The position numbers were made by a program, and so were the translations under genes. From a virus (lineage: Duplodnaviria; Heunggongvirae; Uroviricota; Caudoviricetes; Demerecviridae): 64,000 bases of DNA. The notes under the pieces are model-generated. The model saw only the letters and a program-made list of their open reading frames with translations. It was not told where the DNA came from and made no database searches. The stretch lies in the IMG/VR virus record IMGVR_UViG_2974640449_000001, positions 64,242-128,241 of that record. One strand, 5' to 3'. Shown piece after piece: positions 1 to 64,000 of this stretch; positions within the stretch are counted from its first letter, which is position 1; each line of letters opens with the position of its first letter.

Positions 1-1
1 T

Positions 2-355: not shown

Positions 356-378
356 GAGGGCGAATGCCCTCTTTTTAA
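355..378 (+). terminator. rho-independent terminator after nrdD
   Basis: AGAGGGC-gaat-GCCCTCT followed by TTTTT. Confidence 0.7.
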
Positions 379-393
379 CCCTAGGAGAAAAGT

Positions 394-606
394 ATGAAAC
401 TATTTATGGCATCTTGGTGCAAATACTGCCAACCAGTAAAAGAACTAATAAAAGAAAAGAATCTGGATGTGCAGCTAGTGGATATTGACCACTCATTCGA
501 ATTAGCTACTAAGCATCGAATTACACAAATTCCTGCTTTACTAAAAGACGATAATACTGTTATGTTTGAATCTAAAGATATTATGGCGTACCTGGAGGCT
601 CTATAA
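394..606 (+). CDS. nrdH: glutaredoxin-like protein (NrdH/Grx type)
   Basis: 70 aa with N-terminal MASWCKYCQ CxxC thioredoxin-fold motif. RBS AGGAGA. Sits inside the RNR locus. Confidence 0.7.
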   Translation: MKLFMASWCKYCQPVKELIKEKNLDVQLVDIDHSFELATKHRITQIPALLKDDNTVMFESKDIMAYLEAL

Positions 607-3295: not shown

Positions 3296-3296
3296 T

Positions 3297-3770
3297 ATGA
3301 ATTATATGAATTACTACCCAACAGACGTAGTAAACGGAGAGGGGACGCGTTGCGTCCTCTTTGTGTCTGGATGCTCACATGGATGCAATGGCTGCTATAA
3401 TGAAGCGGCCTGGAATCCAAATAGTGGGCATAAGTTTACTAAAGAAATGGAAGACCAGATCATCCAGGATTTACAAGATACTCGTATCAAACGCAGAGGT
3501 CTGACACTATCTGGAGGCGACCCGCTTCATAAGCGTAATTTTGCGTCGGTTTTGCGCTTGTGTAAGAGAGTTAGAAAGGAATGTCCAACTAAAGATATTT
3601 GGCTGTACACAGGATATACTCTAGAGCAAGTAAAAGAGGGTCGGTTTTGTGCTATACTAGACTATATAGATGTGCTTGTTGATGGTAAATTCGAAAAAGA
3701 TCTGTATGACGCAGGGCTTAAATTCCGTGGTAGTAGTAACCAAAATATCATTTACTTAGGGAAGGCGTAA
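3297..3770 (+). CDS. nrdG: anaerobic RNR activating protein (radical SAM)
   Basis: CVLFVSGCSHGCNGCYN CxxxCxxC cluster motif; about 157 aa. Completes nrdD/nrdG. Confidence 0.85.
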   Translation: MNYMNYYPTDVVNGEGTRCVLFVSGCSHGCNGCYNEAAWNPNSGHKFTKEMEDQIIQDLQDTRIKRRGLTLSGGDPLHKRNFASVLRLCKRVRKECPTKDIWLYTGYTLEQVKEGRFCAILDYIDVLVDGKFEKDLYDAGLKFRGSSNQNIIYLGKA

Positions 3771-3797
3771 GCCCTCCCTTATTATTCGAAAATTCAT

Positions 3798-3826
3798 TTG
3801 CTTTTGTGAGTGAATTTCCGTATAAT
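3798..3826 (+). promoter_or_regulatory. early promoter TTGCTT-17-TATAAT
   Basis: aTTTGCTTttgtgagtgaatttccgTATAATtatctcataaattgaaaatggagatt. Confidence 0.55.
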
Positions 3827-3857
3827 TATCTCATAAATTGAAAATGGAGATTAAATT

Positions 3858-4253
3858 ATGTTTTTAGATTACCAATTCTGCGAGAACAACCAGATATTGA
3901 TTGAGAAAATGTATCACATGAGTTCTCTTTTTACCGGACTAATGGATAGTGAAGTAGACGACCTTAATCGTGACCTTGACGGTGCTCAAAATCAGTTAGT
4001 GATTACTGACAAAACTAAGCAACTGGCTGACATACTAGACGAATGTTACGAAAATAACATGGCTAATGACGATATTTTATCTCGTCTGTACTCAGCAGGA
4101 TTTAACCGTGGTTGTGTATTTGAGCTATCAATTACTAACCCTAGCGGTATTGGTCGCTACCTGCTATATGTATACGTAGAATCTGAGCTAGAGCTGAGAG
4201 CGTATGCAGAAGAACTAGCAGCCAAGGTATGGAGCAAGCATGAAGAAAATTAA
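3858..4253 (+). CDS. hypothetical protein
   Basis: Early promoter and conserved leader upstream (3798-3857). 131-aa ORF with RBS GGAGAT. Confidence 0.5.
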   Translation: MFLDYQFCENNQILIEKMYHMSSLFTGLMDSEVDDLNRDLDGAQNQLVITDKTKQLADILDECYENNMANDDILSRLYSAGFNRGCVFELSITNPSGIGRYLLYVYVESELELRAYAEELAAKVWSKHEEN

Positions 4254-4698
4254 CAGTTTCCGAGGGGAGTATGCGTTTCTCTCTAATATGTTTGAAGTGG
4301 TAATTGAACATGACGGCATTACTTATCCTTCTAGTGAGAACATGTATCAAGCGTTCAAAGCAGAAGAAAGACGAGAACGTAAACTGATTGCTAAGTTACC
4401 TCCAAACCAATCAAAGAACTACTGGAAATTTAATCCAGTTAAAAACCAGTTATTCCATTGTAATAAACTAGTTTACATGGAGAAATGTTTACGAGCTAAG
4501 TTTGCTGACCCACACCTAGCACACTTACTACTAGCAACCGGCGACGCAGAACTAATTGAAGGTAACTGGTGGGGCGATGGTTTCTGGGGAGTCTCGGATA
4601 AAACGGGTCACGGCCATAACCACCTAGGTAAGTTACTAATGAAGCTTCGGGAGGAGATTCGTGAAAGTATTGAAGGAAAACCTACTAAAGAATCCTAA
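4240..4698 (+). CDS. NADAR (YbiA/DUF1768) domain protein, N-glycosidase / ADP-ribosyl hydrolase family
   Basis: FRGEYAFLSNMF...YPSSENMYQAFKA, CLRAKFADPHLAHLLLATGDAELIE, NWWGDG...GHNHLGKLLMKLREEI align with E. coli YbiA blocks. Confidence 0.8.
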   Translation: MKKINSFRGEYAFLSNMFEVVIEHDGITYPSSENMYQAFKAEERRERKLIAKLPPNQSKNYWKFNPVKNQLFHCNKLVYMEKCLRAKFADPHLAHLLLATGDAELIEGNWWGDGFWGVSDKTGHGHNHLGKLLMKLREEIRESIEGKPTKES

Positions 4699-4891
4699 AT
4701 TAAAGTGTGGGGTAGGCTTGCGAACTGCCACACCTGATGAAGTAGCAGAAATGAAAAAGTGGCTAGATTTTCATGGTATTCAATATGTGCATCAAACCAC
4801 TCATCTAAAAACAGGCAATCCTTTACCTTACAATGGCTTGCTTATTATCAATATCATAGGAACTAAAAAGAATGCTAAAAATTTATACTGA
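4661..4891 (+). CDS. hypothetical protein (76 aa)
   Basis: ORF only; overlaps its neighbours. Confidence 0.3.
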   Translation: MKVLKENLLKNPKLKCGVGLRTATPDEVAEMKKWLDFHGIQYVHQTTHLKTGNPLPYNGLLIINIIGTKKNAKNLY

Positions 4892-5330
4892 CGGAGCTTG
4901 CCGTGGCAACCCAGGCGTAGGTGCTTGGGCTTTCGCTGTTTTCGAGGGCTGGGCTAAGAAAGGTACTAAAAGCGCAGCTATGCCACACACTACAAACAAT
5001 GAGGCTGAACTTACAGCCATTGTAAAAGCGTTAGAGTGGGCTATTCGTGCTAACCTATCTCAAGTAGAGATTCTTACAGACTCTAACTACGCATGTCAAG
5101 GTTATAAGACGTGGATGCACGGTTGGGTAAAGAAAGGCTGGGTGACTGCGGGAGGTACTCCAGTCAAGAATCTAGAACTTTGGAAGACTCTATATAATAT
5201 TTCTCAAAAAATTGATGTAACCATGACAAAAGTCAAAGGTCACTCTGGTGATGAAGGTAACGAGCTAGCAGATACTCTATGTAATTGTGCAATTGATGAG
5301 TATGAGCTACAGACAGTGGTGATGAAATAG
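4872..5330 (+). CDS. rnhA: ribonuclease HI
   Basis: MLKIYTDGACRGNPG, NNEAELTA, ILTDSNY, HSGDEGNELADTL: RNase H DEDD residues in the canonical order. Confidence 0.8.
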   Translation: MLKIYTDGACRGNPGVGAWAFAVFEGWAKKGTKSAAMPHTTNNEAELTAIVKALEWAIRANLSQVEILTDSNYACQGYKTWMHGWVKKGWVTAGGTPVKNLELWKTLYNISQKIDVTMTKVKGHSGDEGNELADTLCNCAIDEYELQTVVMK

Positions 5331-5339
5331 GAGTTAGTT

Positions 5340-5678
5340 ATGCAAAAGTATCCTAAAGGCACACTAGTGGAGATTGTCAAACATGAGTGGCGGCAAGACC
5401 TTATTGGTAAGCAGTTCGCTGTAGAAGACACCCAGGTAGGAAACCTAATAGTGGGTAAGGCAAGTACTCAAAGAGTGTTAACCAACGTATTAATGTACAG
5501 AACACCATTCATGTCAGCTCGTCCTAGCGGTAACAATAGAAATATATGGCTTACCGAGGAGTATTTAAGACCTGTACGTGGCGACTACCCGGAAGACGAG
5601 GGCTTCGAGTTTGATGAATCTAAGCTTGTATGGACGCCTACAGTAATTGTAGAAGACGGGGAGGCACTAGTAGTATGA
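5340..5678 (+). CDS. hypothetical protein
   Basis: 112-aa ORF, RBS GGAG. Confidence 0.5.
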   Translation: MQKYPKGTLVEIVKHEWRQDLIGKQFAVEDTQVGNLIVGKASTQRVLTNVLMYRTPFMSARPSGNNRNIWLTEEYLRPVRGDYPEDEGFEFDESKLVWTPTVIVEDGEALVV

Positions 5679-5855
5679 GTCCTTTCGTTTGGAACATCAA
5701 TCTCCTAATTTTCTGGCGTTTAGCATGGCTAGAAAAGCAGTCTGGAAAAGTGGTTATGGATGGGTGGGGTAATATAGGTAGACTATATTACCGTAAACAA
5801 ACCGACCCTGTAGGTTTCTACATCAAGCCTTTAGGCAAGAAAATTAAAAACCTAA

Positions 5856-5884
5856 TTGCTAAAGACTGAAAAACAACGTATAAT
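5856..5884 (+). promoter_or_regulatory. early promoter TTGCTA-17-TATAAT with full conserved leader
   Basis: aaTTGCTAaagactgaaaaacaacgTATAATagttccataaagttgagaaacggagatt. Confidence 0.65.
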
Positions 5885-5916
5885 AGTTCCATAAAGTTGA
5901 GAAACGGAGATTAAAA

Positions 5917-6123
5917 ATGATTTTACCAGAAGATATTCAACCTAAAACCCACTATACCGTATACATCGCTAAAGTGCCTTTCGGTGAGTTTCAGAAAGGC
6001 GACCCTGTGTTTGTGTACAAAACAATCGAAGGTCTAGGTGATTTAAAGGTACACAAAGGCGTCCCTATTGATGGTGACAAAGTTCATTACTTCTTTGACC
6101 ATGAACTAGATTTGGAGCAGTAA
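5917..6123 (+). CDS. hypothetical protein
   Basis: Promoter and leader at 5856-5916; 68 aa. Confidence 0.5.
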   Translation: MILPEDIQPKTHYTVYIAKVPFGEFQKGDPVFVYKTIEGLGDLKVHKGVPIDGDKVHYFFDHELDLEQ

Positions 6124-6125
6124 TT

Positions 6126-6392
6126 ATGATAAGCATGAATAAAGAGCCTGTTGTAGCCACTGGTTTTGAAGCAGTCGTCTGTAAGACCTGGGAAGGCTGG
6201 GATATGGTTGACACATGTTATCTCTATTTTGAGCAGGTAGTATTAACTGCACCATATGCAACAATGCTAGGTGTTAAAGAGATACCTTTTGTTGAATTTG
6301 ATCTAAACAACATGGTTGTACACTTTTTCTTAACCGATGAAGAAAACGCTAAACCAATCACCAAGAAATTACAACTTAGCGTATTAGATTAA
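6126..6392 (+). CDS. hypothetical protein
   Basis: 88-aa ORF, translationally coupled. Confidence 0.5.
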   Translation: MISMNKEPVVATGFEAVVCKTWEGWDMVDTCYLYFEQVVLTAPYATMLGVKEIPFVEFDLNNMVVHFFLTDEENAKPITKKLQLSVLD

Positions 6393-6400
6393 AAATCTAA

Positions 6401-6429
6401 TTGCTAAACATCGAAAAATTTAATATAAT
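6401..6429 (+). promoter_or_regulatory. early promoter TTGCTA-17-TATAAT
   Basis: aaTTGCTAaacatcgaaaaatttaaTATAATattcccatagtttgaaaac. Confidence 0.6.
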
Positions 6430-6467
6430 ATTCCCATAGTTTGAAAACAAAGAAAGGAAAAATCAAT

Positions 6468-6743
6468 ATGACTGAACAAAAAGTAACTCTAAAACCTGTA
6501 GCTGGCGACGCTCTTCTAATCGGTAAATACCAGTCAGGTGTAGACCGTAAGGGTAAACCTGTGTTCCGTTCAATGCCAAAAGGCAAAGAACCTTCAACTA
6601 TCGTGGAAGCGGTGTTTGAAGATGGTCGTGTTCGCTCTAAAGAAGGCGATGTATTTGAAGTTCGCCTGAACAAACGCCCAACAGTCATTAAGACTAAGCA
6701 AGGTGAAAAAGCACTACCTGCTCAATGGATTACTGTAGCGTAA
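6468..6743 (+). CDS. hypothetical protein
   Basis: Promoter 6401-6429. Start moved to ATG 6468 behind RBS AAAGGAAA. Confidence 0.5.
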   Translation: MTEQKVTLKPVAGDALLIGKYQSGVDRKGKPVFRSMPKGKEPSTIVEAVFEDGRVRSKEGDVFEVRLNKRPTVIKTKQGEKALPAQWITVA

Positions 6744-6910
6744 TGGCTAAAGTGCTTGTTGATGAGTCCCTACTCTGGGACTTAATTCACTCAAATATAC
6801 TACTTATGCACCTAGAAAACGAAGGTGTAGATAACTGGAGTGGTTATTACCATCCAGAAGACATTGATGAACAAACTGATAAATTATTGAAGGAAATTAA
6901 GCATGGCTAA
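6725..6910 (+). CDS. hypothetical protein (61 aa)
   Basis: ORF only. Confidence 0.35.
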   Translation: MDYCSVMAKVLVDESLLWDLIHSNILLMHLENEGVDNWSGYYHPEDIDEQTDKLLKEIKHG

Positions 6911-7163
6911 ACAACTAACTTCTGCTCAAAAAGCTGCTCGTCGTACTCACAAAGTTGCACAAACAGCTAAGAACAAGGCTGCTAAACGTGCTCGTCACGC
7001 TAAGGCACACCCTAATGACGCTCAAGTAGCTAAGGGTAAGTTCACTGAGCGTAAAGCCCCTCGTGTGAAAGGTAACTTTCGTAAGGTAAATAAAGCTTAC
7101 CGTGATGAAGCAGGTCACGTATTACCTGCTCCTAGCTTTGCTCCCATTGCAAAAGCTAAGTAA
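6903..7163 (+). CDS. highly basic Lys/Ala-rich protein (histone H1-like, putative nucleic-acid binding)
   Basis: 86 aa, about 30% K/R/A. Confidence 0.5.
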   Translation: MAKQLTSAQKAARRTHKVAQTAKNKAAKRARHAKAHPNDAQVAKGKFTERKAPRVKGNFRKVNKAYRDEAGHVLPAPSFAPIAKAK

Positions 7164-7305
7164 ATGGTTAGCAGGCTAAAACCTGCTGCTCCACCTGGTA
7201 TACGATACATTCCGGCTAGCTGCTGGAGTGTATCCACAGCAGCTAACTTAAACAAGAAAATGCAGATAAGGTATAAAGCAGAAAGATTCTATGTGAGGTA
7301 TAGAA

Positions 7306-8247
7306 ATGAACAACTTCGTAGCAAAACATTGCCGAACGTTTAACAAGGCAACTGTCCAACGTGACAGAACTAAATATCATCGTCCTAGCTCTAAGAGCCT
7401 AATGGATGAGTGGTTTGAAGACGAAAATGACGGGTTCGAGCACCCAGGAATGGTCGAGCCAAAGGAGCTTGAGACTCCTTCTATAAGCGGTAGCGTTTAT
7501 AAAAGAAGTTTCACTAACAAACAGGAGATAACTATGGAGCAAACTATTGCCCTACAGCAAGAAATTCATAACAAGTTATATGGTAACGTAGACCCTGACT
7601 TACTAGAAGTAAGTCCAGTGAGCCATAACCACTTAAACTGGGTTTTTGACCTAGAAACATATGCGACTTGTCAGAATGCCATCGTACCTGAGCTTTCAGC
7701 CGTAGCGTTCGATATTCTTTCAGGCGAAGTTTTTCATGAAGCCACGTTCCATCTTGATGTAGACTCTCAAGTTGCTCTGGGGCGCGAAGTTTCAGCGTCT
7801 ACGCTATCATTTTGGCTAATGCAGTCAGAAGAAGCTCGTATGAAAATGTTGCTCGCCGACCCTGAACACTGTCGCAATAACGGCCTACCAATGCCACTGC
7901 AAATTAGTGGAGCTATGGCACAACTGAGCCATATGATTAAAATAGTGTCAAAGACCTGGGCAGAGCAAACCGGTCTCAGCAAGGAACCTCTAGTATGGGG
8001 TAACGGTATTACTTTTGATTTAGGTAAGACTATCTCGTTGTTCGAAACAGCTCAAGTTCCATTGCCTTGGCAATTCTGGGCAGAGCGCGATGCTCGCACA
8101 TTAATGGACTTAGCCCCAGGCATCAAGAAAGCGTTCGGTAAGGACTTCCGTGGTGTACCTCATTACGGTCTTGACGACTGTAAACACGAGCTGCGTTACT
8201 TATCAGCTACTTACATTAAAATCTGGGAAATGAGCAAAGAAAGTTAA
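7306..8247 (+). CDS. DnaQ-like 3'-5' exonuclease (DEDDh family)
   Basis: WVFDLETY exo I motif and HYGLDDCKHELRY exo III (H..D) motif. Confidence 0.6.
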   Translation: MNNFVAKHCRTFNKATVQRDRTKYHRPSSKSLMDEWFEDENDGFEHPGMVEPKELETPSISGSVYKRSFTNKQEITMEQTIALQQEIHNKLYGNVDPDLLEVSPVSHNHLNWVFDLETYATCQNAIVPELSAVAFDILSGEVFHEATFHLDVDSQVALGREVSASTLSFWLMQSEEARMKMLLADPEHCRNNGLPMPLQISGAMAQLSHMIKIVSKTWAEQTGLSKEPLVWGNGITFDLGKTISLFETAQVPLPWQFWAERDARTLMDLAPGIKKAFGKDFRGVPHYGLDDCKHELRYLSATYIKIWEMSKES

Positions 8248-8255
8248 AAACTTAA

Positions 8256-8284
8256 TTGCTCAAACACTAAAAACTTTATATAAT
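8256..8284 (+). promoter_or_regulatory. early promoter TTGCTC-17-TATAAT
   Basis: aaTTGCTCaaacactaaaaactttaTATAATatattcctaaattgagaaaac. Confidence 0.6.
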
Positions 8285-8322
8285 ATATTCCTAAATTGAG
8301 AAAACAGAAGAAGGAAAACAAA

Positions 8323-9347: not shown

Positions 9348-9424
9348 TGCGAGAATGGAGAAATGGCGTCTTGCGAGGTTCATATCCTCGATAACGGGTG
9401 GTTCGAATCCACCGCTCGCATCCA
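9348..9424 (+). tRNA. tRNA-Met/Ile2 (anticodon CAT)
   Basis: Anticodon arm CGAGG-TTCATAT-CCTCG, T arm GGTGG-TTCGAAT-CCACC, 3' CCA encoded. D arm is irregular. Confidence 0.6.
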
Positions 9425-9513: not shown

Positions 9514-9590
9514 TCTCGGGCAGACCATCTGGTTGAGTCACTACCCTTTCAAGGTAGGATTAGCGGGTTCAATTCCCGTCCCGAGAACCA
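9514..9590 (+). tRNA. tRNA-Glu (TTC)
   Basis: Acceptor TCTCGGG/CCCGAGA, anticodon arm CTACC-CTTTCAA-GGTAG, T arm GCGGG-TTCAATT-CCCGT, CCA. Confidence 0.65.
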
Positions 9591-9596
9591 AATTAC

Positions 9597-9673
9597 GGGG
9601 AATTAGCTCTAATTGGGAGAGCATCTGCTTTGCACGCAGGGGGTTATCGGTTCGAATCCGTTATTCTCCACCA
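9597..9673 (+). tRNA. tRNA-Ala (TGC)
   Basis: GGGGAAT acceptor, loop TTTGCAC, TTCGAAT T loop, CCA. Confidence 0.8.
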
Positions 9674-55224: not shown

Positions 55225-55228
55225 AATT

Positions 55229-55258
55229 CTTGACAGTGAAACAAAAATCCCTTATAAT
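55229..55258 (+). promoter_or_regulatory. consensus promoter TTGACA-18-TATAAT with no downstream ORF
   Basis: tcTTGACAgtgaaacaaaaatcccTTATAATataactgtactctagag. Confidence 0.55.
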
Positions 55259-55264
55259 ATAACT

Positions 55265-55400
55265 GTACTCTAGAGATATTTCTAGCAGTGCGAGGCTCAG
55301 GACAACCTTTTCCAGTCTTGATACTGGGAGTGTGGGTGTCCTGGGTAAGATGCCTCGCAGCTGGGAAAGTTATGGGGGAGTATTAACTGAAGAAAACTGA
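55265..55400 (+). ncRNA. candidate small structured RNA transcribed from promoter 55229
   Basis: No ORF. Nested complementary segments GCGAGGC/GCCTCGC, CAGGACAAC/GTGTCCTG, CCAGTCTTGATACTGG. Confidence 0.35.
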
Positions 55401-55499
55401 TATTATAGATGAACAGAATACGCCCCGCATCCCTCTAGCTCTACTCTAGTATCAACTTATTTAATCCCTAGCTTCTTATGATGTTAGGGATTTTGTCAT

Positions 55500-56020
55500 T
55501 TTAGCACCTATAATATTATCTCTAGAATTTGCACCTATAATATTATCTCTAGAATTTGCACCTATGATTTGGCTTGTTATGATGCGAAGCATTGAGTCTA
55601 GCCATGATTCCCCATGTCAATTCTAAAGCATAGGAATTGCACCTAATTGTATAGGTTATTTCGATAATAGTAAAAGACGGATTGACACCGGTTCAAGGAG
55701 CGACCCCCGTAATTGTCAATTGGTTTTTTCAAAAATCTGCCCCAAACGCCCCAAAACTTTATTTTCCTCCATAAAACCCACCAAATAGCACCAAAATCTC
55801 CATATATCTCTAGAATTCGCACCTATCTCATATCCCTAGCACCTATCAATTTTGCACCTATCAATTTTGCACCTACCCCAATAGCGGCATGTTTTGTGCG
55901 CAGCACGAGTCTAGCCGCAAACCCCCATGTCAATTTTGCACCTATAGAATTTGCACCTATAGAATTTGCACCTACATGTATCACTTTTGCACCAATCGGA
56001 TTTGCACCCGCAGGCGCAGA
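55500..56020 (+). repeat. iteron-like array: about 13 copies of a TTTGCACCTAT(a/c) core, including 28-bp and 19-bp tandem units, plus two copies of a GAGTCTAGCC...CCCATGTCAATT block
   Basis: ttTGCACCTATaatattatctctagaa x2.5 at 55500-55575; GCACCTATcaatttt x2 at 55840-55880; tttGCACCTATagaa x2 then variants at 55925-56015. Confidence 0.75.
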
Positions 56021-56086
56021 GGATTAGAGATTACTAATAAAGTATGCCCTAAATTAGGGTTCACTACATTAGGGATTTCTAATAGA

Positions 56087-56170
56087 CGTCTGGATGGCTA
56101 TACGTCCAGATGGCTAGAAGTCTAGAAGTCCAGATGGCTATACGTCCAGATGGCTAGAAGTCCGTATGCC
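56087..56170 (+). repeat. tandem direct repeats (about 22-bp unit tacgtccagatggctagaagtc, 3 or more copies)
   Basis: cgtctggatggctatacgtccagatggctagaagtctagaagtccagatggctatacgtccagatggctagaagtccg. Confidence 0.7.
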
Positions 56171-56199
56171 ATACCGTATAAAATATGGCACGATTTTTG

Positions 56200-56320
56200 C
56201 TTATTAAAAAGTTATCCACAACTGTATATTTATACATGGCTCTAAAACGCTCTATACAGAGTTATCCACAACCTTATCCACCGCAAAACTACTGTATATT
56301 TATACAGTGCTTTTCAGGTA
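56200..56320 (+). promoter_or_regulatory. DnaA-box cluster (TTATCCACA x2, TTATCCACC) interleaved with CTGTATAtttATACAG palindromes; putative replication-origin element
   Basis: DnaA boxes at 56212-56220, 56262-56270 and 56274-56282; palindromes at 56222-56238 and 56291-56308. Confidence 0.55.
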
Positions 56321-56557
56321 GCAGATTATTCCGAATACCGTTTAAAGCTCTTGTAAGCCTCGCTAACAGCATCCTAGCGTTGTAGCAATACCCTAGCAAG
56401 GGGTAAGCCCTAAACAGCCCACACGTAGTACATGCAAGAACCATGCCAACCTGCCTGACGGGCGCGCCGAAATGATAACTATTCTCATTTGCCCGTATAC
56501 AGTACGCCATACGGTAAAAGGTCAAACAAAACGGCGTACCGTGACGCCGTAACAGTT

Positions 56558-56695
56558 TTAATTTTTTAGTCGCTCTACTACCCAATCGCAGCGGCGGTCT
56601 AACTTATCTAATTTTTCGTCAATAACTCGCTGATTCTCTAGTATCAGCTTTTGATTGTTAACGACTAGCTGCAACAGCTCTATAATCTTTTTCAT
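56558..56695 (-). CDS. small coiled peptide (45 aa), paralog of 48874-49026; not in ORF track
   Basis: ATGA-coupled to the upstream minus-strand gene; MKKIIELLQLVVNNQKLILENQRVIDEKLDKLDRRCDWVVERLKN. Confidence 0.3.
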   Translation of the reverse strand: MKKIIELLQLVVNNQKLILENQRVIDEKLDKLDRRCDWVVERLKN

Positions 56696-56916
56696 CGCGG
56701 CTCAAAATCTTTTACTATTTCTAGAAATTCACGGATAGTAATTCCATCGCATCGTATTTCTTCATCCGAGTGTTGAGTATGGCGTACTGTAAACTTGTCG
56801 TATTCTACTTGCTCAATTTCTGAGACTAGCACACCTTTATAGTATAAACCACGTTTTTTGTGTGGCTCATAAACTTGTTGCAAGAATGATACTAACATTT
56901 CACTAGGTCTTAACAT
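56692..56916 (-). CDS. hypothetical protein (74 aa)
   Basis: Minus-strand ORF in a translationally coupled chain. Confidence 0.45.
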   Translation of the reverse strand: MLRPSEMLVSFLQQVYEPHKKRGLYYKGVLVSEIEQVEYDKFTVRHTQHSDEEIRCDGITIREFLEIVKDFEPR

Positions 56917-57158
56917 TAGTCTATCCCCTGTTCACTGATAAACTCACCTATAGCAAACATGCGCTCGCTATCGTTCGGGTAAGCGTCTGAATCAGCCATT
57001 TCAACAATAATAGCTAAATTAGATAAGCCTTGTTTAGCGATTACTAAATCACGGAGCATGTTTTGAGTTACTACGTCTAGCGGATTATGTATCAAACGTG
57101 TATTGAGCATATGCTCAATACGTGCTAGTGCTTCCTGACTTTGTTTTATAGTAGCCAT
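56916..57158 (-). CDS. hypothetical acidic protein (80 aa)
   Basis: Coupled ATGA overlaps on both sides. Confidence 0.45.
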   Translation of the reverse strand: MATIKQSQEALARIEHMLNTRLIHNPLDVVTQNMLRDLVIAKQGLSNLAIIVEMADSDAYPNDSERMFAIGEFISEQGID

Positions 57159-57352
57159 TACCAGGTAGCCTCCAATTGATAAAGCTTCTCAATTACATCG
57201 AATTGCTCGCCTTGCTCATTTTGCCAAACTTGCCCAAATTCGGTGTTTTCTACGTGCTTCATTGCCATAGGTATTGTGTAATATTGCATTTCCCCCATAA
57301 ATGCAATATTACACATCCAGACTTGCCCTAGGGTTTCGACATGTACTTTCAT
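57158..57352 (-). CDS. hypothetical acidic protein (64 aa)
   Basis: Coupled. Confidence 0.4.
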   Translation of the reverse strand: MKVHVETLGQVWMCNIAFMGEMQYYTIPMAMKHVENTEFGQVWQNEQGEQFDVIEKLYQLEATW

Positions 57353-57520
57353 TTTTTAGCCTCCATTAGCTCGCCTAATGAGATTACTATAACCATTGCT
57401 AGAAATGCTCCAGTCATTTTTCAATCACCAAAATTTTGTTATAGTCCATACGTACAGTAAAAAACGGCTTGCCGTTTCTAACCGCCCACAATAGGGCGGT
57501 AGCGTAGTTGTCAAACTCCA

Positions 57521-57841
57521 TTAGACTTTTAACCAACCATTAACAAACGTTGCGCCTTCATAAATAGAACGCCATGTTAATAAATCAGCTCTAGCGTATT
57601 GAAAAAGCATACCGCCATTAGTTGCGCCCTTAGCAAAAGCAATGGCATATGTCAATACTTTTGCTTTTAAAATTTCTTCGACTGACTCAAACAAACTAAT
57701 ATGGGTTGTCAGGTCAAAATGATACTCTTTGTTTGACAAAAAGCATTGCGCCATTTCCATGCGCTTGCTGATAGAAGTGTCAGCATTCAATTGGTAAGCC
57801 GTGCTTACTACTGGAGTAGTTAGATATTGTTTGTATTCCAT
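57521..57841 (-). CDS. hypothetical protein (106 aa)
   Basis: Minus-strand ORF; RBS present. Confidence 0.45.
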   Translation of the reverse strand: MEYKQYLTTPVVSTAYQLNADTSISKRMEMAQCFLSNKEYHFDLTTHISLFESVEEILKAKVLTYAIAFAKGATNGGMLFQYARADLLTWRSIYEGATFVNGWLKV

Positions 57842-57900
57842 TTTGTTGCCCTCGCTTTCTAGCGGTAGTTAGTGGGGACTTTCGTCCCCCCGTTGATTAA

Positions 57901-58284
57901 TTAGTGCGCCATAATGCAATCAGGGTTTTCCCCGATTACCGTATATTCTTCAATCGCACGCTTACCAACACTTTCCCAAGATTGGTCATTTTTTGTTTTA
58001 TTAGCTACACCGTGTAGGTAATAGCCGTTACCAGTATCACGCTCTAATGAGAATGGTTTACCCATATCAAAAGCATTATTATAAAAGTGATGTTCCCAAG
58101 TACCTTCGACATCAAACCAGCGCCACATATAATGCTCGAACATAGCTTTCATTTTGTCTAGTGCTAGCTGACATTCAACCTCGCTGATAATATCAGCCTC
58201 AAAACCGTTGCGAATAATGGCAACGGCTTTATTCCAACCTAGTGAATCAATGGTATCAGACAAGACAAGAAAATCAATTTTCAT
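57901..58284 (-). CDS. hypothetical protein (127 aa)
   Basis: Start moved to the ATG at 58284 behind RBS GAGAGG (track start 58332). Confidence 0.45.
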   Translation of the reverse strand: MKIDFLVLSDTIDSLGWNKAVAIIRNGFEADIISEVECQLALDKMKAMFEHYMWRWFDVEGTWEHHFYNNAFDMGKPFSLERDTGNGYYLHGVANKTKNDQSWESVGKRAIEEYTVIGENPDCIMAH

Positions 58285-58392
58285 GGTAAAACCTCTCGCC
58301 AAAATCGGTGGCGGTATCCGTTTAGGCATCAATTGCCTAGGTCTTTATAATACTAAAACCTAGGCAGGATGTAAAGTGATTTAGCTCACATT

Positions 58393-58728
58393 TTACGATG
58401 TATAGTGAAAATCTACTTGGTCTATACCAATTTCACGCCATACCATAGAACTTGTTTCAAGTCCATAGTTATCTAGCATATCTGATAAATTGGCTAGTTC
58501 GTCTAGGTCGCAATAGCCCTCGATACCCATATCAGAGTTATAGAACATCATACCGTAGGCAGGATGAATCATAACGGCTAACTGAGAATCGTTATCAATA
58601 TACCATATGGTATTTTCAGGGTCTTCATTAAATGCGTTCCCGTCTTCCTTAGTAACAAGGATTATTGAGTCTAGACTCAATAGTGTTGGTGTTTCGGTAC
58701 AGTTAAAAGCCATTATTTCAATCTCCAA
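58393..58728 (-). CDS. hypothetical strongly acidic protein (111 aa)
   Basis: RBS TTGGAGATTGAAATAATG on the minus strand; D/E-rich. Confidence 0.45.
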   Translation of the reverse strand: MEIEIMAFNCTETPTLLSLDSIILVTKEDGNAFNEDPENTIWYIDNDSQLAVMIHPAYGMMFYNSDMGIEGYCDLDELANLSDMLDNYGLETSSMVWREIGIDQVDFHYTS

Positions 58729-59049
58729 TACGGGTAAAAACCTACCGCCATAGCGGTAATAAACATTACTGATTCAAACATACTATGCCTACCTTGTCAA
58801 ATAGTTTTTTCATGGTAGAAGCCGAGGCGATAAACTCGCCAGTGTCGATACTTACACACCACCAAATTACATCAAAGAAAATACGATACATTTTACCGCC
58901 TCCGTTGTTTGGGTAGGTCTATATTTACTCATATTCTAGCCCACTTGTCTAATAACATTTAGTTATATAAAACGATTCTGGCAACGCCAGGCGTTATAAG
59001 CGCTGTAAGCCATTCTGAGAGGTTCTAACAAAAAGCCTTACTTTAATAT

Positions 59050-59180
59050 GTCTAGGTTGTGGATAACCGCTCACAATGGATTCTAGGGGCAGGAAACGCC
59101 ATTCTATATCGGATAAGCTGTGATTTAGGGTAGATAACTTCCATTTTCCTGTTGATAAGTTGTGGATATACAGTAGATAA
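59050..59180 (+). promoter_or_regulatory. second DnaA-box cluster in inverted orientation (TGTGGATAA, TGTGGATAT, GATAAG variants)
   Basis: 59058-59066 TGTGGATAA is the reverse complement of TTATCCACA; 59161-59169 TGTGGATAT; ggataagctgtg at 59111. Confidence 0.5.
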
Positions 59181-59424
59181 CCAGTATTATTAGAGATTGC
59201 TAATGTGAATAAGTCTGTTGATAAAAAGTTGGCACGAAAATTTCCATAGAACAAAGTCAAATAAAAATTCGCTATATAATATAAACAAAAATTCTTTGAC
59301 AAATAAAAATCCTTCGTTCTAGTTCTATTCACAAAAGTGCATGAATATGCAGTTTTTAGGGCAAAAGTGCATAAACCATTTAGTAATGCAATGGTATGGC
59401 TAAGGGCTAAAATCGCTTAGAATC

Positions 59425-59470
59425 GCATACAGAGCGTTTTAAAGGTATGTATAAATATACAGTAGTTTTT
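59425..59470 (+). repeat. inverted copy (about 85% identity) of the 56216-56310 palindrome/DnaA element
   Basis: The reverse complement aaaactactgtatatttatacatacctttaaaacgctctgtatgc aligns with 56216-56258 and 56283-56308. Confidence 0.55.
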
Positions 59471-59749
59471 AAGTTGGCATGATTTTTGAGGGTATGACAA
59501 AGTTCACATTTTATATATACAAGTTTGACTTTTCATTCTAGCTATGGTAGACGCGCGCCCGTTTCCTTATATTTATAGGGCAAAAATACCTGATAGGCAA
59601 AACCTATCAATCTAGTGTTTTTTAAAGATTTAAACGATTAGACTAATTTTCTCAATTCGCTATTATATACCCATACCAACGAGACAGGGCAGCAACAAAA
59701 CCCTATCAAGTTGAGTATAGAAAGACTGAAAAGTTTTTCAAAAAAGTAG

Positions 59750-59778
59750 TTGACAAGCCAAACGGCTTTTGAGATACT
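59750..59778 (+). promoter_or_regulatory. promoter TTGACA-17-GATACT upstream of the pre-early-like genes
   Basis: gTTGACAagccaaacggcttttgaGATACTactaacg; followed at 59858-59890 by the perfect inverted repeat GTTAACCGA..TCGGTTAAC. Confidence 0.4.
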
Positions 59779-59942
59779 ACTAACGTTCCCAAGGGAACAC
59801 GCTCTTTAACAATTTGGAATATGTGATTTGACCCATTGCTTACTGGACTGTTTAACGAGTGTTAACCGTTAACCGATTCATAACGAGTCGGTTAACTGAG
59901 AAACACTCTCATTTAAACTAACCTATTAAGAGGAAAAATATC

Positions 59943-60386
59943 ATGGCTAAGAAATGGACAGAAGAATCAGCAGCAAAAGCGGCAGAACTTTACAATGCTA
60001 AACTAGAAGCAGACGGTAAAGAAGCAGCAGCGCACAACGATTTTCTAGATGAAATCGCTAAACACGAAGAAGTTCAAGCGGTATCAGGTAAAGCAGTGCG
60101 CTCAAAACTTACTGTTATGGGTATCTATCAGAAACCGGACGCAGTTGCAAGTGTTGCGAAAACTAATACAGTGCGAAAAGAGCATTATGTACGTGCTCTA
60201 GCTCATACGCTAGGCTTAGATGTTGATGATTTGGACAGCCTTAAAAACGCTAAAATGTCAGCCCTAGAAGCTGTTTCGACTGCAATCGGTATTACTGACG
60301 TTATGACAGCAAGTGCAAAAGACTACAAACCAGATTTAGAAAAGGTTTGTGAAGCATTCGAAAATGCTCGCGGTCTAGACATTTAA
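59943..60386 (+). CDS. hypothetical protein (147 aa), pre-early-type
   Basis: RBS GAGGAAAAATATCATG. Confidence 0.5.
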   Translation: MAKKWTEESAAKAAELYNAKLEADGKEAAAHNDFLDEIAKHEEVQAVSGKAVRSKLTVMGIYQKPDAVASVAKTNTVRKEHYVRALAHTLGLDVDDLDSLKNAKMSALEAVSTAIGITDVMTASAKDYKPDLEKVCEAFENARGLDI

Positions 60387-60399
60387 CCGTCTAATAAAT

Positions 60400-60480
60400 T
60401 GGGGTAGCAATACCCCAATTTACAGTGTAAATTGCTTATCAGTTTACACTGTAAATTAAACCCGTAAATGGAGATATAAT
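60400..60480 (+). promoter_or_regulatory. hairpin (GGGGTAGCAATACCCC) plus 13-bp inverted-repeat operator (TTTACAGTGTAAAT / ATTTACACTGTAAA) and GGAGAT RBS
   Basis: ggggtagcaataccccaaTTTACAGTGTAAATtgcttatcagTTTACACTGTAAATtaaacccgtaaatggagatataatcATG; a second copy is at 60868-60955. Confidence 0.55.
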
Positions 60481-60481
60481 C

Positions 60482-60853
60482 ATGTCACAACAAACTCAAA
60501 TCATTGCATTAGGTTCACTTCTAGAAGCAGGTAACGCAAAATCAGAGCTACAACAAAAAGTTGCTAAACTAATTAACGTGCGTTTTGGTTGGCGTAAAAA
60601 CGACCGTATTTCTAGCAATACGTTACAAGCTGTTATCAATTTGATTGAAACATACGGTGGCAAAAAGCTGTTTCTAGAAAGCGAGCTAGATTCATTAGTA
60701 TATGCTAATAAAGCGGCTAAACTGACAGTATTCAGCCTACTATGTGAGGCGTTAAAAATCACTGATGTAACAGAGCGTAAAAATATTATGTCTATTGTTA
60801 CTAGTGGCGGGGAGCGCGAATTTCCGGTTCAAGTTCTAAAAGCATTCTGTTAG
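60482..60853 (+). CDS. hypothetical protein (123 aa)
   Basis: RBS ATGGAGATATAATCATG. Confidence 0.5.
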   Translation: MSQQTQIIALGSLLEAGNAKSELQQKVAKLINVRFGWRKNDRISSNTLQAVINLIETYGGKKLFLESELDSLVYANKAAKLTVFSLLCEALKITDVTERKNIMSIVTSGGEREFPVQVLKAFC

Positions 60854-60867
60854 TCAGGTATAAATTA

Positions 60868-60955
60868 GGGTAGCAATACCCTAATTTACAGTGTAAATTT
60901 ACCCAAGTTTACACTGTAAATTTCAAACCAACCCCATAGTGGAGATATACACAAA
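60868..60955 (+). promoter_or_regulatory. second copy of the hairpin plus palindromic operator
   Basis: gggtagcaataccctaaTTTACAGTGTAAATttacccaagTTTACACTGTAAATttcaaaccaaccccatagtggagatatacacaaATG. Confidence 0.55.
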
Positions 60956-62610
60956 TGACTAAACAACTAGTAGAAAACAAAGCTCAAATCCTTAAACTTG
61001 CAAAAGGCGAAAACTTTTGGGGCAAACGCCTAGACTCAAAACGTCGTGAGGTTGCAATTTCAATCCGTGAAGCTCTTAAACTAGATATTCATTCTAGCGA
61101 TTTGGTTGATTTTCTGGACGATAACAAACCAGTTAAAAAGACGCAGCAAAAATCACACGCTCAACAGGCAAGTGCAGACATTGAGCCAACTTTTGCAGGT
61201 AGTTTGCAGGGGCGTGATTATGAAAATCTAGACGATGGTTTATATATCATCACGGCAGCGCAAAACAATACTAAACCACATCCAGTATTAAATACATTGC
61301 TCTCAATGGCTAAATCATTGGATGCTGAATTTGGTATCATGCCGATTAAATACACAACTACGTTGCAAGGCTTGGAGCGTAAAAAGCCTAGTTTTCACGC
61401 AGACGTTAAAAAGCATCTGCTAGATAATGTCGATACATGGTTGGGTGGCGAAGGTAACGTGCTACTTGCTAACAGTGCTCAAATTCTACCGACTGCAAAA
61501 CAACCTATCAATGCAGCCGAAAAGCTTAATACAGGCGAGTCAATGACTATCGTTGCATCGCCTCGACGCCAAACAAAAACCCTACCTCGCCAGAAAAACG
61601 GTGCGCATCGTTGGGTTTATACAACGTCCGTTTGTACTCTTAAACACTACACTGATAGTCGTGCAGGGGCAGAGGCAGAAGCTGAGCATTGTTTCGGTGG
61701 TATCTTGATTCAAGTCACTAACGGCATGGTAAATCACCGCCGCCTAGTAGCTGACGAAAACGGCGTTATTGTTGATAATGGTTCGGTGTACTTCCCTGAT
61801 GGTACAATCAAAGCTTACAACGATGTATTTGATAATCAGCCCGTTATTGTGCTAGGTGATTTACACTGCGAAAAAATGTGCGACGACTCATTTCAACGTG
61901 CTACAGATTGGGCATTCGCTAACAATCCTCGCCTAATTGTGGTACACGATGCGCTAGATTTTATGAGCCGTAACCATCATAACCGTGAAGATTGGACATT
62001 CTTGTATCAAATGCAAGACCGTGCAGTAATCGAAGATTTAACCGATGTTATCAATCACTTGAATGCGCTTGCTGACATTGCGCCAGTATTTATTGTTGAA
62101 TCAAATCATGATTTAGCCCTAGATTCTTGGCTACGTGATAATAAATTCGACGTACGCAAAGACCCGAAAAACGCCCGTACTTATCACGCTCTAATGCTTG
62201 CTTACATTGAAGCTATGGATAACGGCACTTTTGACGACCTAGCGAAAATGGATTTAGCGTTTGCAGCCCTAGCCGATAAGCTACCAGAACTAAACCCAAA
62301 TATTGAGTTTGGCAAGCTGGATAATCAAAAACTAGCTTATGGTTATGATATTTCAATGCACGGTCACGTTGGTACAGGTGGGGCGAGAGGTAGCGCAGTA
62401 TCATTTAAGAAAATGCGCATTAAAACAATTACAGCTCATACCCATTCACCTTTTGAAGATAACAACAATATTGTTGTCGGTGTAACTGGTTCGATGGAAA
62501 TGGGCTACAACAAAGGCGGTACAACTTGGGACAGAGCAAACGCTATTGTTTATCCTAACTCAACTTGTCAGCTTATCCCGATGTATCTAATCGGTGAACA
62601 ACAATACTAA
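60955..62610 (+). CDS. A1-like pre-early protein (551 aa) with metallophosphoesterase-type motifs
   Basis: VVLGDLHCE, VVHDALD, GHVGTGG, HTHSP; size and position (next to the dmp-like gene) match T5 A1 (556 aa), which is an inference. Confidence 0.5.
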   Translation: MTKQLVENKAQILKLAKGENFWGKRLDSKRREVAISIREALKLDIHSSDLVDFLDDNKPVKKTQQKSHAQQASADIEPTFAGSLQGRDYENLDDGLYIITAAQNNTKPHPVLNTLLSMAKSLDAEFGIMPIKYTTTLQGLERKKPSFHADVKKHLLDNVDTWLGGEGNVLLANSAQILPTAKQPINAAEKLNTGESMTIVASPRRQTKTLPRQKNGAHRWVYTTSVCTLKHYTDSRAGAEAEAEHCFGGILIQVTNGMVNHRRLVADENGVIVDNGSVYFPDGTIKAYNDVFDNQPVIVLGDLHCEKMCDDSFQRATDWAFANNPRLIVVHDALDFMSRNHHNREDWTFLYQMQDRAVIEDLTDVINHLNALADIAPVFIVESNHDLALDSWLRDNKFDVRKDPKNARTYHALMLAYIEAMDNGTFDDLAKMDLAFAALADKLPELNPNIEFGKLDNQKLAYGYDISMHGHVGTGGARGSAVSFKKMRIKTITAHTHSPFEDNNNIVVGVTGSMEMGYNKGGTTWDRANAIVYPNSTCQLIPMYLIGEQQY

Positions 62611-62676
62611 TTAGTGTTTTATTAATAGGCATTCTAGCGAGTGCCTATTGTTGAACCCACTAATGGAGATAGACAA

Positions 62677-63180
62677 ATGTCAATTGAAGCAGTATTAACT
62701 CAAAAAGCAGAAGCTAAACAAGAAGCCAAAAAACAAAAAGCTATCTATCAAGAAGCTAAACACAAGCACAGCATAGCAGCTAGTAAAGCGTTATTTACAG
62801 AAGCCGATAAAGAGCTAATAGCCGAGCAGGTTAACACGCTTAAAAGTTTTGGTACTACGCCTCTTATGTCATGGGGGGACTTATCAAAACATGGCAATAT
62901 TCTAAAATATCTCAAGCTGTTTGATATTGACAAGGACGTGAAATTATTTGCTACGTCTATCCTTTGTGACGACGACTTGAAAAAAGCTATTACTGAATAC
63001 GACACGGCAAAAGAAATTTACTGCAAAGCATTGCGTGAATTAATGTTGTCTAAAGCTACACTTCTAAATGCTTTGATTCAGAATAAATTGTTTGGTTTCT
63101 TACGTGTCAGTACCAAGAAGTTAGCAAAAGCGGCAGCAGATATGCGCAAGCATTCAGAACGCTACAACACACAATACTAA
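62677..63180 (+). CDS. hypothetical pre-early protein (167 aa)
   Basis: Hairpin AATAGGCA-ttctagcgag-TGCCTATT then RBS AATGGAGATAGACAAATG. Confidence 0.45.
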   Translation: MSIEAVLTQKAEAKQEAKKQKAIYQEAKHKHSIAASKALFTEADKELIAEQVNTLKSFGTTPLMSWGDLSKHGNILKYLKLFDIDKDVKLFATSILCDDDLKKAITEYDTAKEIYCKALRELMLSKATLLNALIQNKLFGFLRVSTKKLAKAAADMRKHSERYNTQY

Positions 63181-63260
63181 TCCTACGCCATACGGCTCGA
63201 CGGGCGCAAATGTGACGCCCGTCACACTTTACAAATTACCCAATTATGGAGATTAAACCA

Positions 63261-63899
63261 ATGACTAAAGCATATGTATTCGACCTAGACGGCACAACTA
63301 TCGACAGCTTTCACCGTGTTGCGCCATGCCTAGACAGCAACGGCAACCTAAACCTAGATAAGTATATCAAAGAGGCTTGCACACCTGAGAAAGTCGCAAA
63401 TGATACACTCTTACCACTTGCCGGATATATGCAGCAGCTTATTAAGGATGGTCAAATAGTAATCATTCTCACCGCCCGTTACATGCTTAATCATGATTAT
63501 GTTTACCTACGCAAGAATCAATTGAGAACGCCTATCATTTGCAGCCGTGACCAATTGAGCCGTGTATTTGGTGAAGGTAATGCAGCCCGTATCAGTGCAA
63601 TGTCAGATGCGCCATATAAGCGCCAGTGGTTCGAGCATTTATTTGCTAGTATGCCACACGTTACAGAGTGGTCATTCTTTGACGACCATGATGGTATATT
63701 AGAAATGGCTAATTCATTAAAAGGTGTTACAGCTACGGATGCTAAACTCATGAATGAGCTGTTACAAATGCAATGGGCTGATATTTACCGCCAAGGCGAA
63801 CAAGACACCGCCGAGTTGATTCAAGACCTAATTGCTGAATGTTCAACTCAAGATGTGATTTGCAAGCCTGAATGGATTGATGAGCTTTTAGCTCAATAA
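63261..63899 (+). CDS. dmp: HAD-family 5'-deoxyribonucleotidase-like protein (Dmp-like)
   Basis: MTKAYVFDLDGTTID HAD motif I; hairpin GACGGGCG..CGCCCGTC plus RBS TATGGAGATTAAACCAATG upstream. Confidence 0.55.
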   Translation: MTKAYVFDLDGTTIDSFHRVAPCLDSNGNLNLDKYIKEACTPEKVANDTLLPLAGYMQQLIKDGQIVIILTARYMLNHDYVYLRKNQLRTPIICSRDQLSRVFGEGNAARISAMSDAPYKRQWFEHLFASMPHVTEWSFFDDHDGILEMANSLKGVTATDAKLMNELLQMQWADIYRQGEQDTAELIQDLIAECSTQDVICKPEWIDELLAQ

Positions 63900-63925
63900 A
63901 TAAAGAAAAGCTGTACAAATAAGAA

Positions 63926-63950
63926 TGGCTCTCAATTGAGAGCCATTATC
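63926..63950 (+). terminator. hairpin terminator
   Basis: ATGGCTCTCAATTGAGAGCCAT followed by T-rich sequence. Confidence 0.5.
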
Positions 63951-64000
63951 ATCTAGGGGGCGGTAATGAGACTAGTTCTCATTTGCATATAGGGGTACAC

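Follow-up and report, generated by a model that had tools for sequence, protein, structure and literature searches.

The subject of this analysis is a 4.7-kb region (positions 55229-59940) in a stretch of 64,000 nucleotides (the window) from a virus of the family Demerecviridae. The region is the inner half of the right 8.3-kb terminal-repeat copy of Vibrio phage Ceto, together with 470 bp of adjoining unique DNA. Judged by sequence comparison, it is homologous in mirror image to R1/R2 and R3, repeat regions of bacteriophage T5, and it is a new, divergent member of the T5 terminal-repeat/injection-stop class, i.e. a real, conserved cis-acting region. Its repeats exceed chance by a wide margin.

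Location of the region and border of the terminal repeat

A megablast search gave a 100% match between positions 55229-59940 and Vibrio phage Ceto (MG649966.1, 128,241 bp; Demerecviridae, Ermolyevavirinae), whose final 64,000 bp constitute the window. Both ends of MG649966 are annotated with identical genes, and a comparison of record positions 1-8301 with window positions 55700-64000 resulted in 0 mismatches over 8,301 bases. This segment is a long direct terminal repeat in a genome of the Demerecviridae, and dmp, A1, and A2 lie at its outer end. Its inner border is located at 55690-55709, where the cut between 55699 and 55700 separates GGTTCAAGGA from GCGACCCCCG; position 55700 equals position 1 of the record, i.e. 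the physical genome end. The border falls within an array of short direct repeats (iterons) and inside the region under study, at neither of its ends; a previous interpretation made from the letters alone (the sequence-only reading) had proposed the region as a candidate injection-stop boundary between early and pre-early modules.

Alignments of both non-coding blocks of the region were computed for the five Vibrio phages Ceto, pVp-1, VF16, Quinn, and Hades. Within the inner-block alignment, conservation is highest in the border block; the border sequence itself, the DnaA boxes, the outer palindrome, and the promoter of A2 are invariant stretches. In VF16, for which the border was determined independently by means of PhageTerm, it lies at the identical base, namely at the junction of GGTTCAAGGA and GCGACCCCCG. 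The gene content between the blocks differs among the five phages; the non-coding blocks are conserved.

The record starts of Quinn, Chester, ABurr, and other Vibrio harveyi phages are offset by up to ~450 bp from the conserved border sequence, and the Quinn record begins ~280 bp inside of it. Because the record starts differ relative to the conserved border, the repeat borders in related Vibrio phage deposits may have been placed inconsistently.

Comparison with bacteriophage T5

[quoted passage not shown] According to the annotation, the left repeat of T5 comprises, from the end inward, dmp-A1-A2 on the minus strand, promoters and the inverted repeats C and D, and the open reading frames ORF011-017 on the plus strand. 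Further inward follow palindrome D with the inverted repeats D' and C' and direct repeat C (DRC, four copies) with palindromes; innermost are the 7.9% nick and then direct repeat D (DRD, nine copies), which straddles the border at 10139. If Ceto is read from position 64000 downward, the order of elements is that of T5. The outer block (58892-59942) corresponds to R1/R2 and contains the pre-early promoter beside A2, a DnaA cluster, a palindrome, and a GC-rich box (GC box). R3, where the injection stop is presumed to lie, has its counterpart in the inner block (55500-56557), which contains a module consisting of a DnaA-box pair and a palindrome, a tandem array, a nick-like site with the motif GCGCAG, and the iterons. 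Variable small genes on the opposite strand separate the two blocks, also in VF16, Quinn, Hades, pVp-1, and the Vibrio cholerae phage JSF12. The order of iterons, plus-strand DnaA boxes, palindrome, open reading frames (ORFs), palindrome, GC box, and A2 is kept in JSF12, a distant relative, and in a Klebsiella phage, and the Salmonella phage Sw2, whose repeat was set by PhageTerm, possesses the same types of elements.

In a sensitive blastn comparison with T5, for which 30 shuffles served as a control (best shuffle 31.6 bits), homology of individual elements was detectable. Positions 56258-56308 of Ceto (DnaA pair and palindrome) align with T5 9382-9331 over 52 nt with 79% identity (42.6 bits), and both the block and the orientation correspond. 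Between the outer GC box and T5 5127-5152, 24 of 26 positions are identical (36.3 bits). Both scores exceed the shuffle maximum. Shorter strings common to the two phages are TGTGAATAAGTCTGTTGATAA (T5 9358-9378) and a sequence in the A2 leader which is similar to inverted repeat C. The reverse complement of the T5 DRD repeat, GTCGGATTTGCACA, shares its core with the Ceto iteron and is nearly identical to TCGGATTTGCACCC. Because several Ceto elements are homologous to those of T5, the claim of the sequence-only reading that this is not T5 sequence, and that the repeat families are specific to this phage, has to be given up. Its comparison with the T5 first-step-transfer boundary holds more strongly than was supposed there, as homologues of R1/R2 and R3 are present and the terminal-repeat border lies inside the region.

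T5 and Ceto have in common the oppositely oriented DnaA-box modules with the palindrome TACTGTATATTTATACAG, the GC box, the GCGCAG nick-type site adjoining the innermost direct repeat, and a one-directional repeat array with the core ATTTGCAC, which straddles the border. In both blocks of Ceto, the inverted repeat is accompanied by DnaA boxes, among these pairs which are 3 bp apart (56262/56274 and 59204/59216). The phages differ in that Ceto infects Vibrio and belongs to the subfamily Ermolyevavirinae; its terminal repeat is shorter (8.3 kb versus 10.1 kb), its iteron is mostly AATTTGCACCTAT with a spacing of 15 or 27 bp, an 8-bp tandem array replaces the DRC repeats, its sequence resembling inverted repeat C sits in the A2 leader, and it contains exact sigma54-type motifs, of which T5 has only degenerate versions. 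The inverted repeat of Ceto is 48 nt long at 81% identity, whereas that of T5 comprises 131 bp with a fixed 52-bp spacer. The 131-bp unit of Davison, in which inverted repeats D' and C' flank this constant spacer, was not found in Ceto, where the arms are 48 and 29 nt long.

Davison (10.1101/866236) reports that the T5 regions carry about eight DnaA or DnaA-like boxes, paired 3 bp apart, and proposes that membrane-bound DnaA halts DNA entry; the first-step DNA of T5 ends at ~9618, beside these elements. The set of 25 phages in that preprint contains no Vibrio phage, and LexA is not mentioned there. According to the BF23 paper, experimental work on what these sites do is lacking.

Iterons and nick-like site

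The iteron core TTGCACCTA occurs in eight exact copies in the window, all of them on the plus strand between 55529 and 55974; with at most one mismatch there are 13 copies (55502-55995), which agrees with the approximately 13 cores in several spacing classes reported previously. The pattern T[TAC]GCACC has 14 copies (55502-56002), four outside and ten inside the terminal repeat. The four TTGCACCTA-type iterons outside the repeat (55502-55645, plus strand) consist of three at 27-bp spacing and a further one; the ten inside (55786-56010, plus strand) include two triplets spaced 15 bp. Altogether, the units are 11-15 bp long, and spacings of 15, 20-21, 27, 31, 69, 81, and 149 bp were observed. 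The two copies of the unit GAGTCTAGCC...CCCCATGTCAATT (55594-55622, plus strand, and 55907-55935; 83% identity) flank the border.

The innermost iteron, TCGGATTTGCACCC (55996-56009, plus strand), is the copy nearly identical to the T5 DRD repeat and is invariant in the five Vibrio phages. It is adjoined by GCGCAGAGG (56014-56022), the counterpart of the mapped 7.9% nick site of T5 (CCCTGCGC; reverse complement GCGCAGGG), which adjoins DRD1. The nick-like site is conserved in the relatives; by analogy with T5, Ceto may be nicked at 56014-56022.

Like DRD in T5, the iteron array of Ceto overruns the repeat border into unique DNA. The numbers of iterons inside and outside the border are 6/3 in T5, 7/3 in Sw2, and 10/4 in Ceto; in all three phages the border is situated in the largest gap of the array, and that of VF16 is at the base found in Ceto. 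No iterons were detected at the dmp-side end of the repeat. Repeated motifs are present where the end-forming cut lies, which is characteristic of a terminase-type (pac/cos-like) site; binding and cutting by terminase are only putative here. Short direct repeats beside an end cut are also encountered in T7, whose SRL/SRR arrays flank the terminal repetition, and in SPP1, whose pacL/pacR are repeated terminase-binding boxes, although phage family, repeat sequence, and repeat length differ from those of Ceto. To our knowledge, terminase binding has been demonstrated for no T5-like phage.

The two non-coding blocks

The non-coding stretches measure ~1.3 kb (55225-56557) and ~1.05 kb (58892-59942). 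The inner block contains the ten iterons, the 8-bp tandem array, and DnaA boxes combined with CTGT-N8-ACAG palindromes. These latter elements form the inner DnaA/palindrome module (56209-56313, plus strand), which is homologous to inverted repeat D' of T5. It comprises a DnaA box at 56212, a pair of such boxes with a 3-bp gap at 56262 and 56274, and SOS-box-type palindromes at 56220-56239 and 56290-56309; its internal repeats are spaced 50 and 70 bp. Exact DnaA boxes (TTATCCACA) occur in the 64-kb window only at 56212(+), 56262(+), and 59058(-); boxes with one mismatch are located at 56274(+) and at 59150, 59161, 59204, and 59216 (all on the minus strand). Three consensus boxes had previously been assigned to 56200-56320; two of these are indeed exact, but the third carries the mismatch.

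The outer DnaA-box cluster (59058-59224) consists of the exact box at 59058 and the pairs 59150/59161 (2-bp gap) and 59204/59216 (3-bp gap, TGTGAATAAGTCTGTTGATAA). All of its boxes are on the minus strand, in agreement with the mirror-image cluster proposed for 59050-59180, and a stretch with a GC content of 25% (59200-59299) abuts it. Two pairs of arms constitute the inverted repeat: 56209-56256 and 59428-59475 (48 nt, 81%), and 56285-56313 and 59441-59469 (29 nt, 90%). These values bracket the ~85% estimated before for an inverted copy of the palindrome block at 59425-59470. The outer arm (59428-59475) contains the third SOS-box-type palindrome (59445-59464), the left half-site of which is ATGT.

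The outer GC box, TATGGTAGACGCGCGCCCGTTTCCTT (59543-59568), whose T5 homologue lies in repeat region R1, is conserved in the relatives. The sequence-only reading correctly recognized GC-rich boxes shared by the two blocks, one of them inverted; they are found at 56458-56467 and, inverted, at 59553-59562. We rejected these boxes as part of the large inverted repeat: they are out of register, and the coordinate sums differ.

Positions 56023-56083 contain the palindrome CCCTAAATTAGGG and, at 56023-56038 and 56068-56083, ATTAG-N6-CTAAT motifs, elements that are invariant in the relatives; another ATTAG-N6-CTAAT copy is located in the outer block (59189-59204) in the same orientation as those of the inner block. 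There follows the tandem array of ten 8-bp units with the consensus AGANGKCY (56084-56163), which gives 62 of 80 matches to the met-box AGACGTCT of MetJ. A 22-bp tandem period, as assumed previously for 56087-56170, is ruled out; over 56083-56170 the true period is 8 bp (also 16 and 40). A sigma54-type -24/-12 motif, TGGCACGATTTTTGC (56186-56200, plus strand), is conserved in the relatives with a variable N4 spacer. Positions 56434-56492 comprise a minus-strand sigma54-type motif (56448-56434), the GC box ACGGGCGCGC (56458-56467), and AAATGATAACTATTCTCATTTGC (56470-56492), which resembles the DRC repeat of T5. A terminator-like hairpin of the intrinsic type (56531-56550, minus strand) closes the minus-strand block of small genes.

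In the outer block, the pre-early sigma70 promoter of A2-A1-dmp (TTGACA, 17 nt, TG-extended GATACT; 59750-59778, plus strand) is invariant in the five Vibrio phages. The A2 leader (59861-59942, plus strand) contains hairpins and the sequence TGAGAAACACTCTCATTTAA (59897-59916), which resembles inverted repeat C of T5 with a borderline score of 31.6 bits. Since Pfam recognizes none of A1, A2, and Dmp, these proteins were identified by blastp against T5 (42%, 31%, and 42% identity for A2, A1, and Dmp) and by PHROG matches (A2, 'DNA binding protein'; A1, 'DNA transfer protein'). A1-like and Dmp-like genes, each with a hairpin and a ribosome-binding site, had been predicted downstream, and the homologues as well as the hairpin-containing leaders are present. 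The leaders of gp217 and A1 (60390-60481 and 60860-60954) have in common a long hairpin, cagtgtaaa...tttacactg, just before the ribosome-binding site. A palindrome of the family AATGAGA-N5-TCTCATTTGC was seen at 63965-63987, ~10-35 bp from the outer genome end; its relatives at 56470-56492 (inner block) and 59897-59916 (A2 leader) are those named above, and the family resembles inverted repeat C and direct repeat C of T5.

Resemblances to binding sites of host factors

Some elements of the region resemble binding sites of LexA, MetJ, sigma54, and, in other phages, Fur; these leads are sequence resemblances. The palindrome at 56290-56309 agrees with the LexA box consensus CTGT-N8-ACAG in 18 of 20 positions (0.00 matches expected by chance) and the T5 copy in 19 of 20. 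This consensus with its AT-rich spacer is valid for gamma-Proteobacteria including Vibrio (PMC3323433). The palindromes at 56220 and 59445 have one damaged half-site each, Hades possesses no perfect palindrome site, and no promoter has been shown at the SOS-type palindrome. Because TGTATAWWTATACA is invariant across the phages while a number of copies have no outer C or G (C3 or G18), a binder other than LexA is possible.

MetJ operators consist of two or more tandem 8-bp met-boxes like AGACGTCT (PMC3413123). The best run of five units in the Ceto array reaches 32 of 40 matches, compared with a maximum of 24 of 40 in 20 shuffles of the window. Met-box-like arrays are found at the equivalent position in VF16, pVp-1, Quinn, and JSF12 and are absent from T5 and the Klebsiella phage. 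Neither a met gene nor a promoter, as would be typical of the methionine regulon, was found at the Ceto array, and a ribbon-helix-helix protein of the phage might be an alternative binder.

The exact motif TGGCAYG-N4-TTGC (GG-N10-GC spacing) occurs in the 64 kb only at 56186(+) and 56448(-), i.e. in two copies facing each other across the inner module; near matches of sigma54 type are located in the outer block (59230-59244 and 59475-59489, both plus strand). Both exact copies are conserved in the Vibrio relatives, where the spacer varies. No ORF was found downstream of the exact motifs. Fur-box-like sequences (15-18 of 19 positions versus GATAATGATAATCATTATC) exist in T5 (9574-9639 and 228-252) and in the Klebsiella phage (2430-2454 and 11376-11400), and in both phages such repeats occupy the position of Ceto's array. 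The terminal repeats of both phages are enriched in them; in T5, 10 hits, including the injection-stop DRC repeats, compare with 0.8 expected, whereas Ceto shows no enrichment (7 hits versus 4.0 expected). In our literature search, no publication turned up that connects LexA/SOS boxes or MetJ with T5-like phages.

Small genes, doubtful ORFs, and a candidate small RNA

Nine small protein-coding genes of undefined function (56558-58891, minus strand) are transcribed away from the dmp end and take the position of ORF011-017 in T5. Each of them is a full-length match to a PHROG family; the previous description of the entire 4.7 kb as low-coding is incorrect for this segment. Neither a ribbon-helix-helix nor another DNA-binding domain was detected in the small ORFs.

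In contrast to these nine, the ORFs 55713-56027(+), 55823-55984(-), 58994-59332(-), and 56289-56444(-) are probably non-genes lying over regulatory DNA. None of the four is annotated in Quinn, Hades, VF16, or pVp-1, and 55713-56027 and 58994-59332 have no match to a PHROG or Pfam family. The Ceto record lists all four as 'hypothetical proteins'; they overlie the iterons, the DnaA cluster, and the palindrome. The ORF 56289-56444 matches a 51-amino-acid PHROG family, yet it overlaps the conserved palindrome, and its status was left between gene and non-gene.

The 470 bp of unique DNA between the early genes and the border hold four iterons and a promoter-to-terminator unit for a candidate small RNA. 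A perfect sigma70-type promoter (TTGACA-17-TATAAT; 55230-55258, plus strand; 12 of 12 matches) is located directly past the last early gene. The candidate structured RNA of ~235 nt (55265-55503, plus strand), which lies between this gene and the first iteron, has a terminator-like hairpin (55463-55492) at its end and then a run of T. Its predicted fold has an energy of -81 kcal/mol (z = -4.2; 0 of 200 shuffles were equally stable), and the blocks GGGGGAGTATTAAC... and ...GAACAGAATACGCCCCG are conserved in the five Vibrio phages; covariation is weak in these five sequences. Transfer RNA and Rfam scans of 54.5-60.5 kb, which include the candidate, gave nothing above threshold.

Discussion

We consider it probable that the region is a T5-type terminal-repeat control region with an entry pause, with modules bound by host proteins, and with iterons that mark the genome end. 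If Ceto behaves like T5, the dmp end (window position 64000) would enter the cell first, the outer block would serve host RNA polymerase with sigma70 for the expression of A2-A1-dmp and the small genes, and DNA entry would pause at the inner block for as long as A1 and A2 have not acted. Going beyond the T5 homology, we propose that the two opposed modules of DnaA boxes and SOS-type palindromes are bound by resident host proteins (DnaA, probably LexA) and that the resulting complex might hold the DNA as it enters. The 14 iterons on both sides of the border, which all point in one direction, would constitute the recognition array for the end-forming packaging cut, and the iteron end would be packaged first, provided that Ceto, like T5, ejects the dmp end first.

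Several points weigh against this interpretation. Two-step injection has been shown for T5 and BF23 only, not for Ceto, and no model explains how the binding of proteins to DNA that has already entered blocks further entry. The role of the iterons is purely inferential. The inverted repeat is shorter and more degenerate than that of T5 (48 nt/81% versus 131 bp), and the DnaA boxes and the palindrome of the outer block are ordered unlike a strict mirror image. Moreover, the record was built such that its two repeat copies cannot differ, which is why the border in Ceto rests on the depositors' analysis and on VF16.

A more specific proposal, which we regard as rather doubtful, describes the injection-stop as a landing pad. 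Its universal core would be paired DnaA boxes together with a near-consensus LexA box, present twice and inverted, to which each lineage has added arrays: MetJ-type met-boxes and sites for sigma54 closed complexes in the Vibrio phages, Fur-like boxes in T5 and the Klebsiella phages. The bound proteins, with no need for any newly made protein, would stall the incoming DNA or anchor it until its release by A1/A2, and the iterons with the core ATTTGCAC, common to Ceto and T5 around the border, would mark the genome end packaged first.

A rival reading sees a function mainly in packaging and end-processing: the whole inner block with its iterons, 41-nt units, and nick-like site would be a pac/cos-like site for terminase and for duplication of the repeat, and the pause would be encoded elsewhere. 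We judge this unlikely, although in four phages, which represent two subfamilies, the iteron array encloses the border, the border sequence is invariant in the five Vibrio phages, all units of the array point the same way and the opposite repeat end has none, and it is not established how long terminal repeats arise (PMC8541194). Such a function leaves unexplained the second, opposed DnaA/palindrome module 3 kb away beside A2, and the position at which the first-step DNA of T5 ends, ~9618, is beside these same elements.

Still less likely is a purely transcriptional role, in which the sites of DnaA, LexA, met-box, and sigma54 type would act as operators and promoters for pre-early timing or for non-coding RNAs and would have no part in DNA entry or end formation. 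The outer block does lie between divergent operons and contains a conserved sigma70 promoter, two exact sigma54-type motifs converge on the inner module, and a promoter-to-terminator RNA unit is found at 55230-55503. The inner module, however, is located beyond the operon terminator with no ORF to control, and the iterons straddle the genome end; in addition, all T5 gene classes are reported to be transcribed with sigma70 (PMC7472727).

A replication origin was the other possibility offered by the sequence-only reading; in such an origin, DnaA would bind the box clusters and open AT-rich DNA beside them, or a Rep-type protein would bind the iterons. Clusters of consensus TTATCCACA boxes, some of them closely paired, are typical of oriC and of the titration locus datA. 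In Ceto, there are eight boxes with at most one mismatch in two clusters, including all three exact boxes of the window, and 14 direct repeats; Davison calls the T5 arrangement 'reminiscent of oriC' (10.1101/866236). The boxes of Ceto differ from those of oriC and datA in that they lie on the first-entering DNA of a virulent phage, in inverse duplicate 3 kb apart, with neither a demonstrated unwinding element nor an initiator gene: the neighbours are the small genes and A2/A1/dmp. The iterons of 11-15 bp lie at irregular spacings of 15-149 bp with no helical phasing and do not match phased Rep sites of 17-22 bp, the array encloses a physical genome end, and the change in GC skew, which we analysed, coincides with the switch of the coding strand. 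Davison argues against an origin function because the T5 origins were mapped near the genome centre; the replication genes are not on the first-step DNA (10.1101/866236). An origin is thus very improbable, and it keeps a small probability because the stretch of 25% GC at 59200-59299 adjoins the outer DnaA cluster; repeated AT-rich 13-mers were not found in the repeat analysis. Finally, repeats that merely reflect collapsed or chimeric terminal repeats in the assembly can practically be dismissed: identity of the right with the left copy is what would be expected had the depositors duplicated it, but T5 and phages that were sequenced independently in the USA, Korea, Japan, and Bangladesh show these elements too, and in this order.

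The stop of T5 DNA after 8% entry has been a question since the 1960s, for which the DnaA boxes are the sole current proposal. Ceto has kept the T5 architecture although A1, A2, and Dmp are only 31-42% identical; the T5 repeats are therefore narrowed to a few survivors, namely the TACTGTATATTTATACAG palindrome next to paired DnaA boxes, the GC box, the site with GCGCAG, and the ATTTGCAC iterons around the border. The resemblances point to host factors which are named and can be removed genetically (LexA, DnaA, MetJ, sigma54, and Fur). Of moderate interest in itself, the region has its chief value as a comparative handle on the old injection-stop question.

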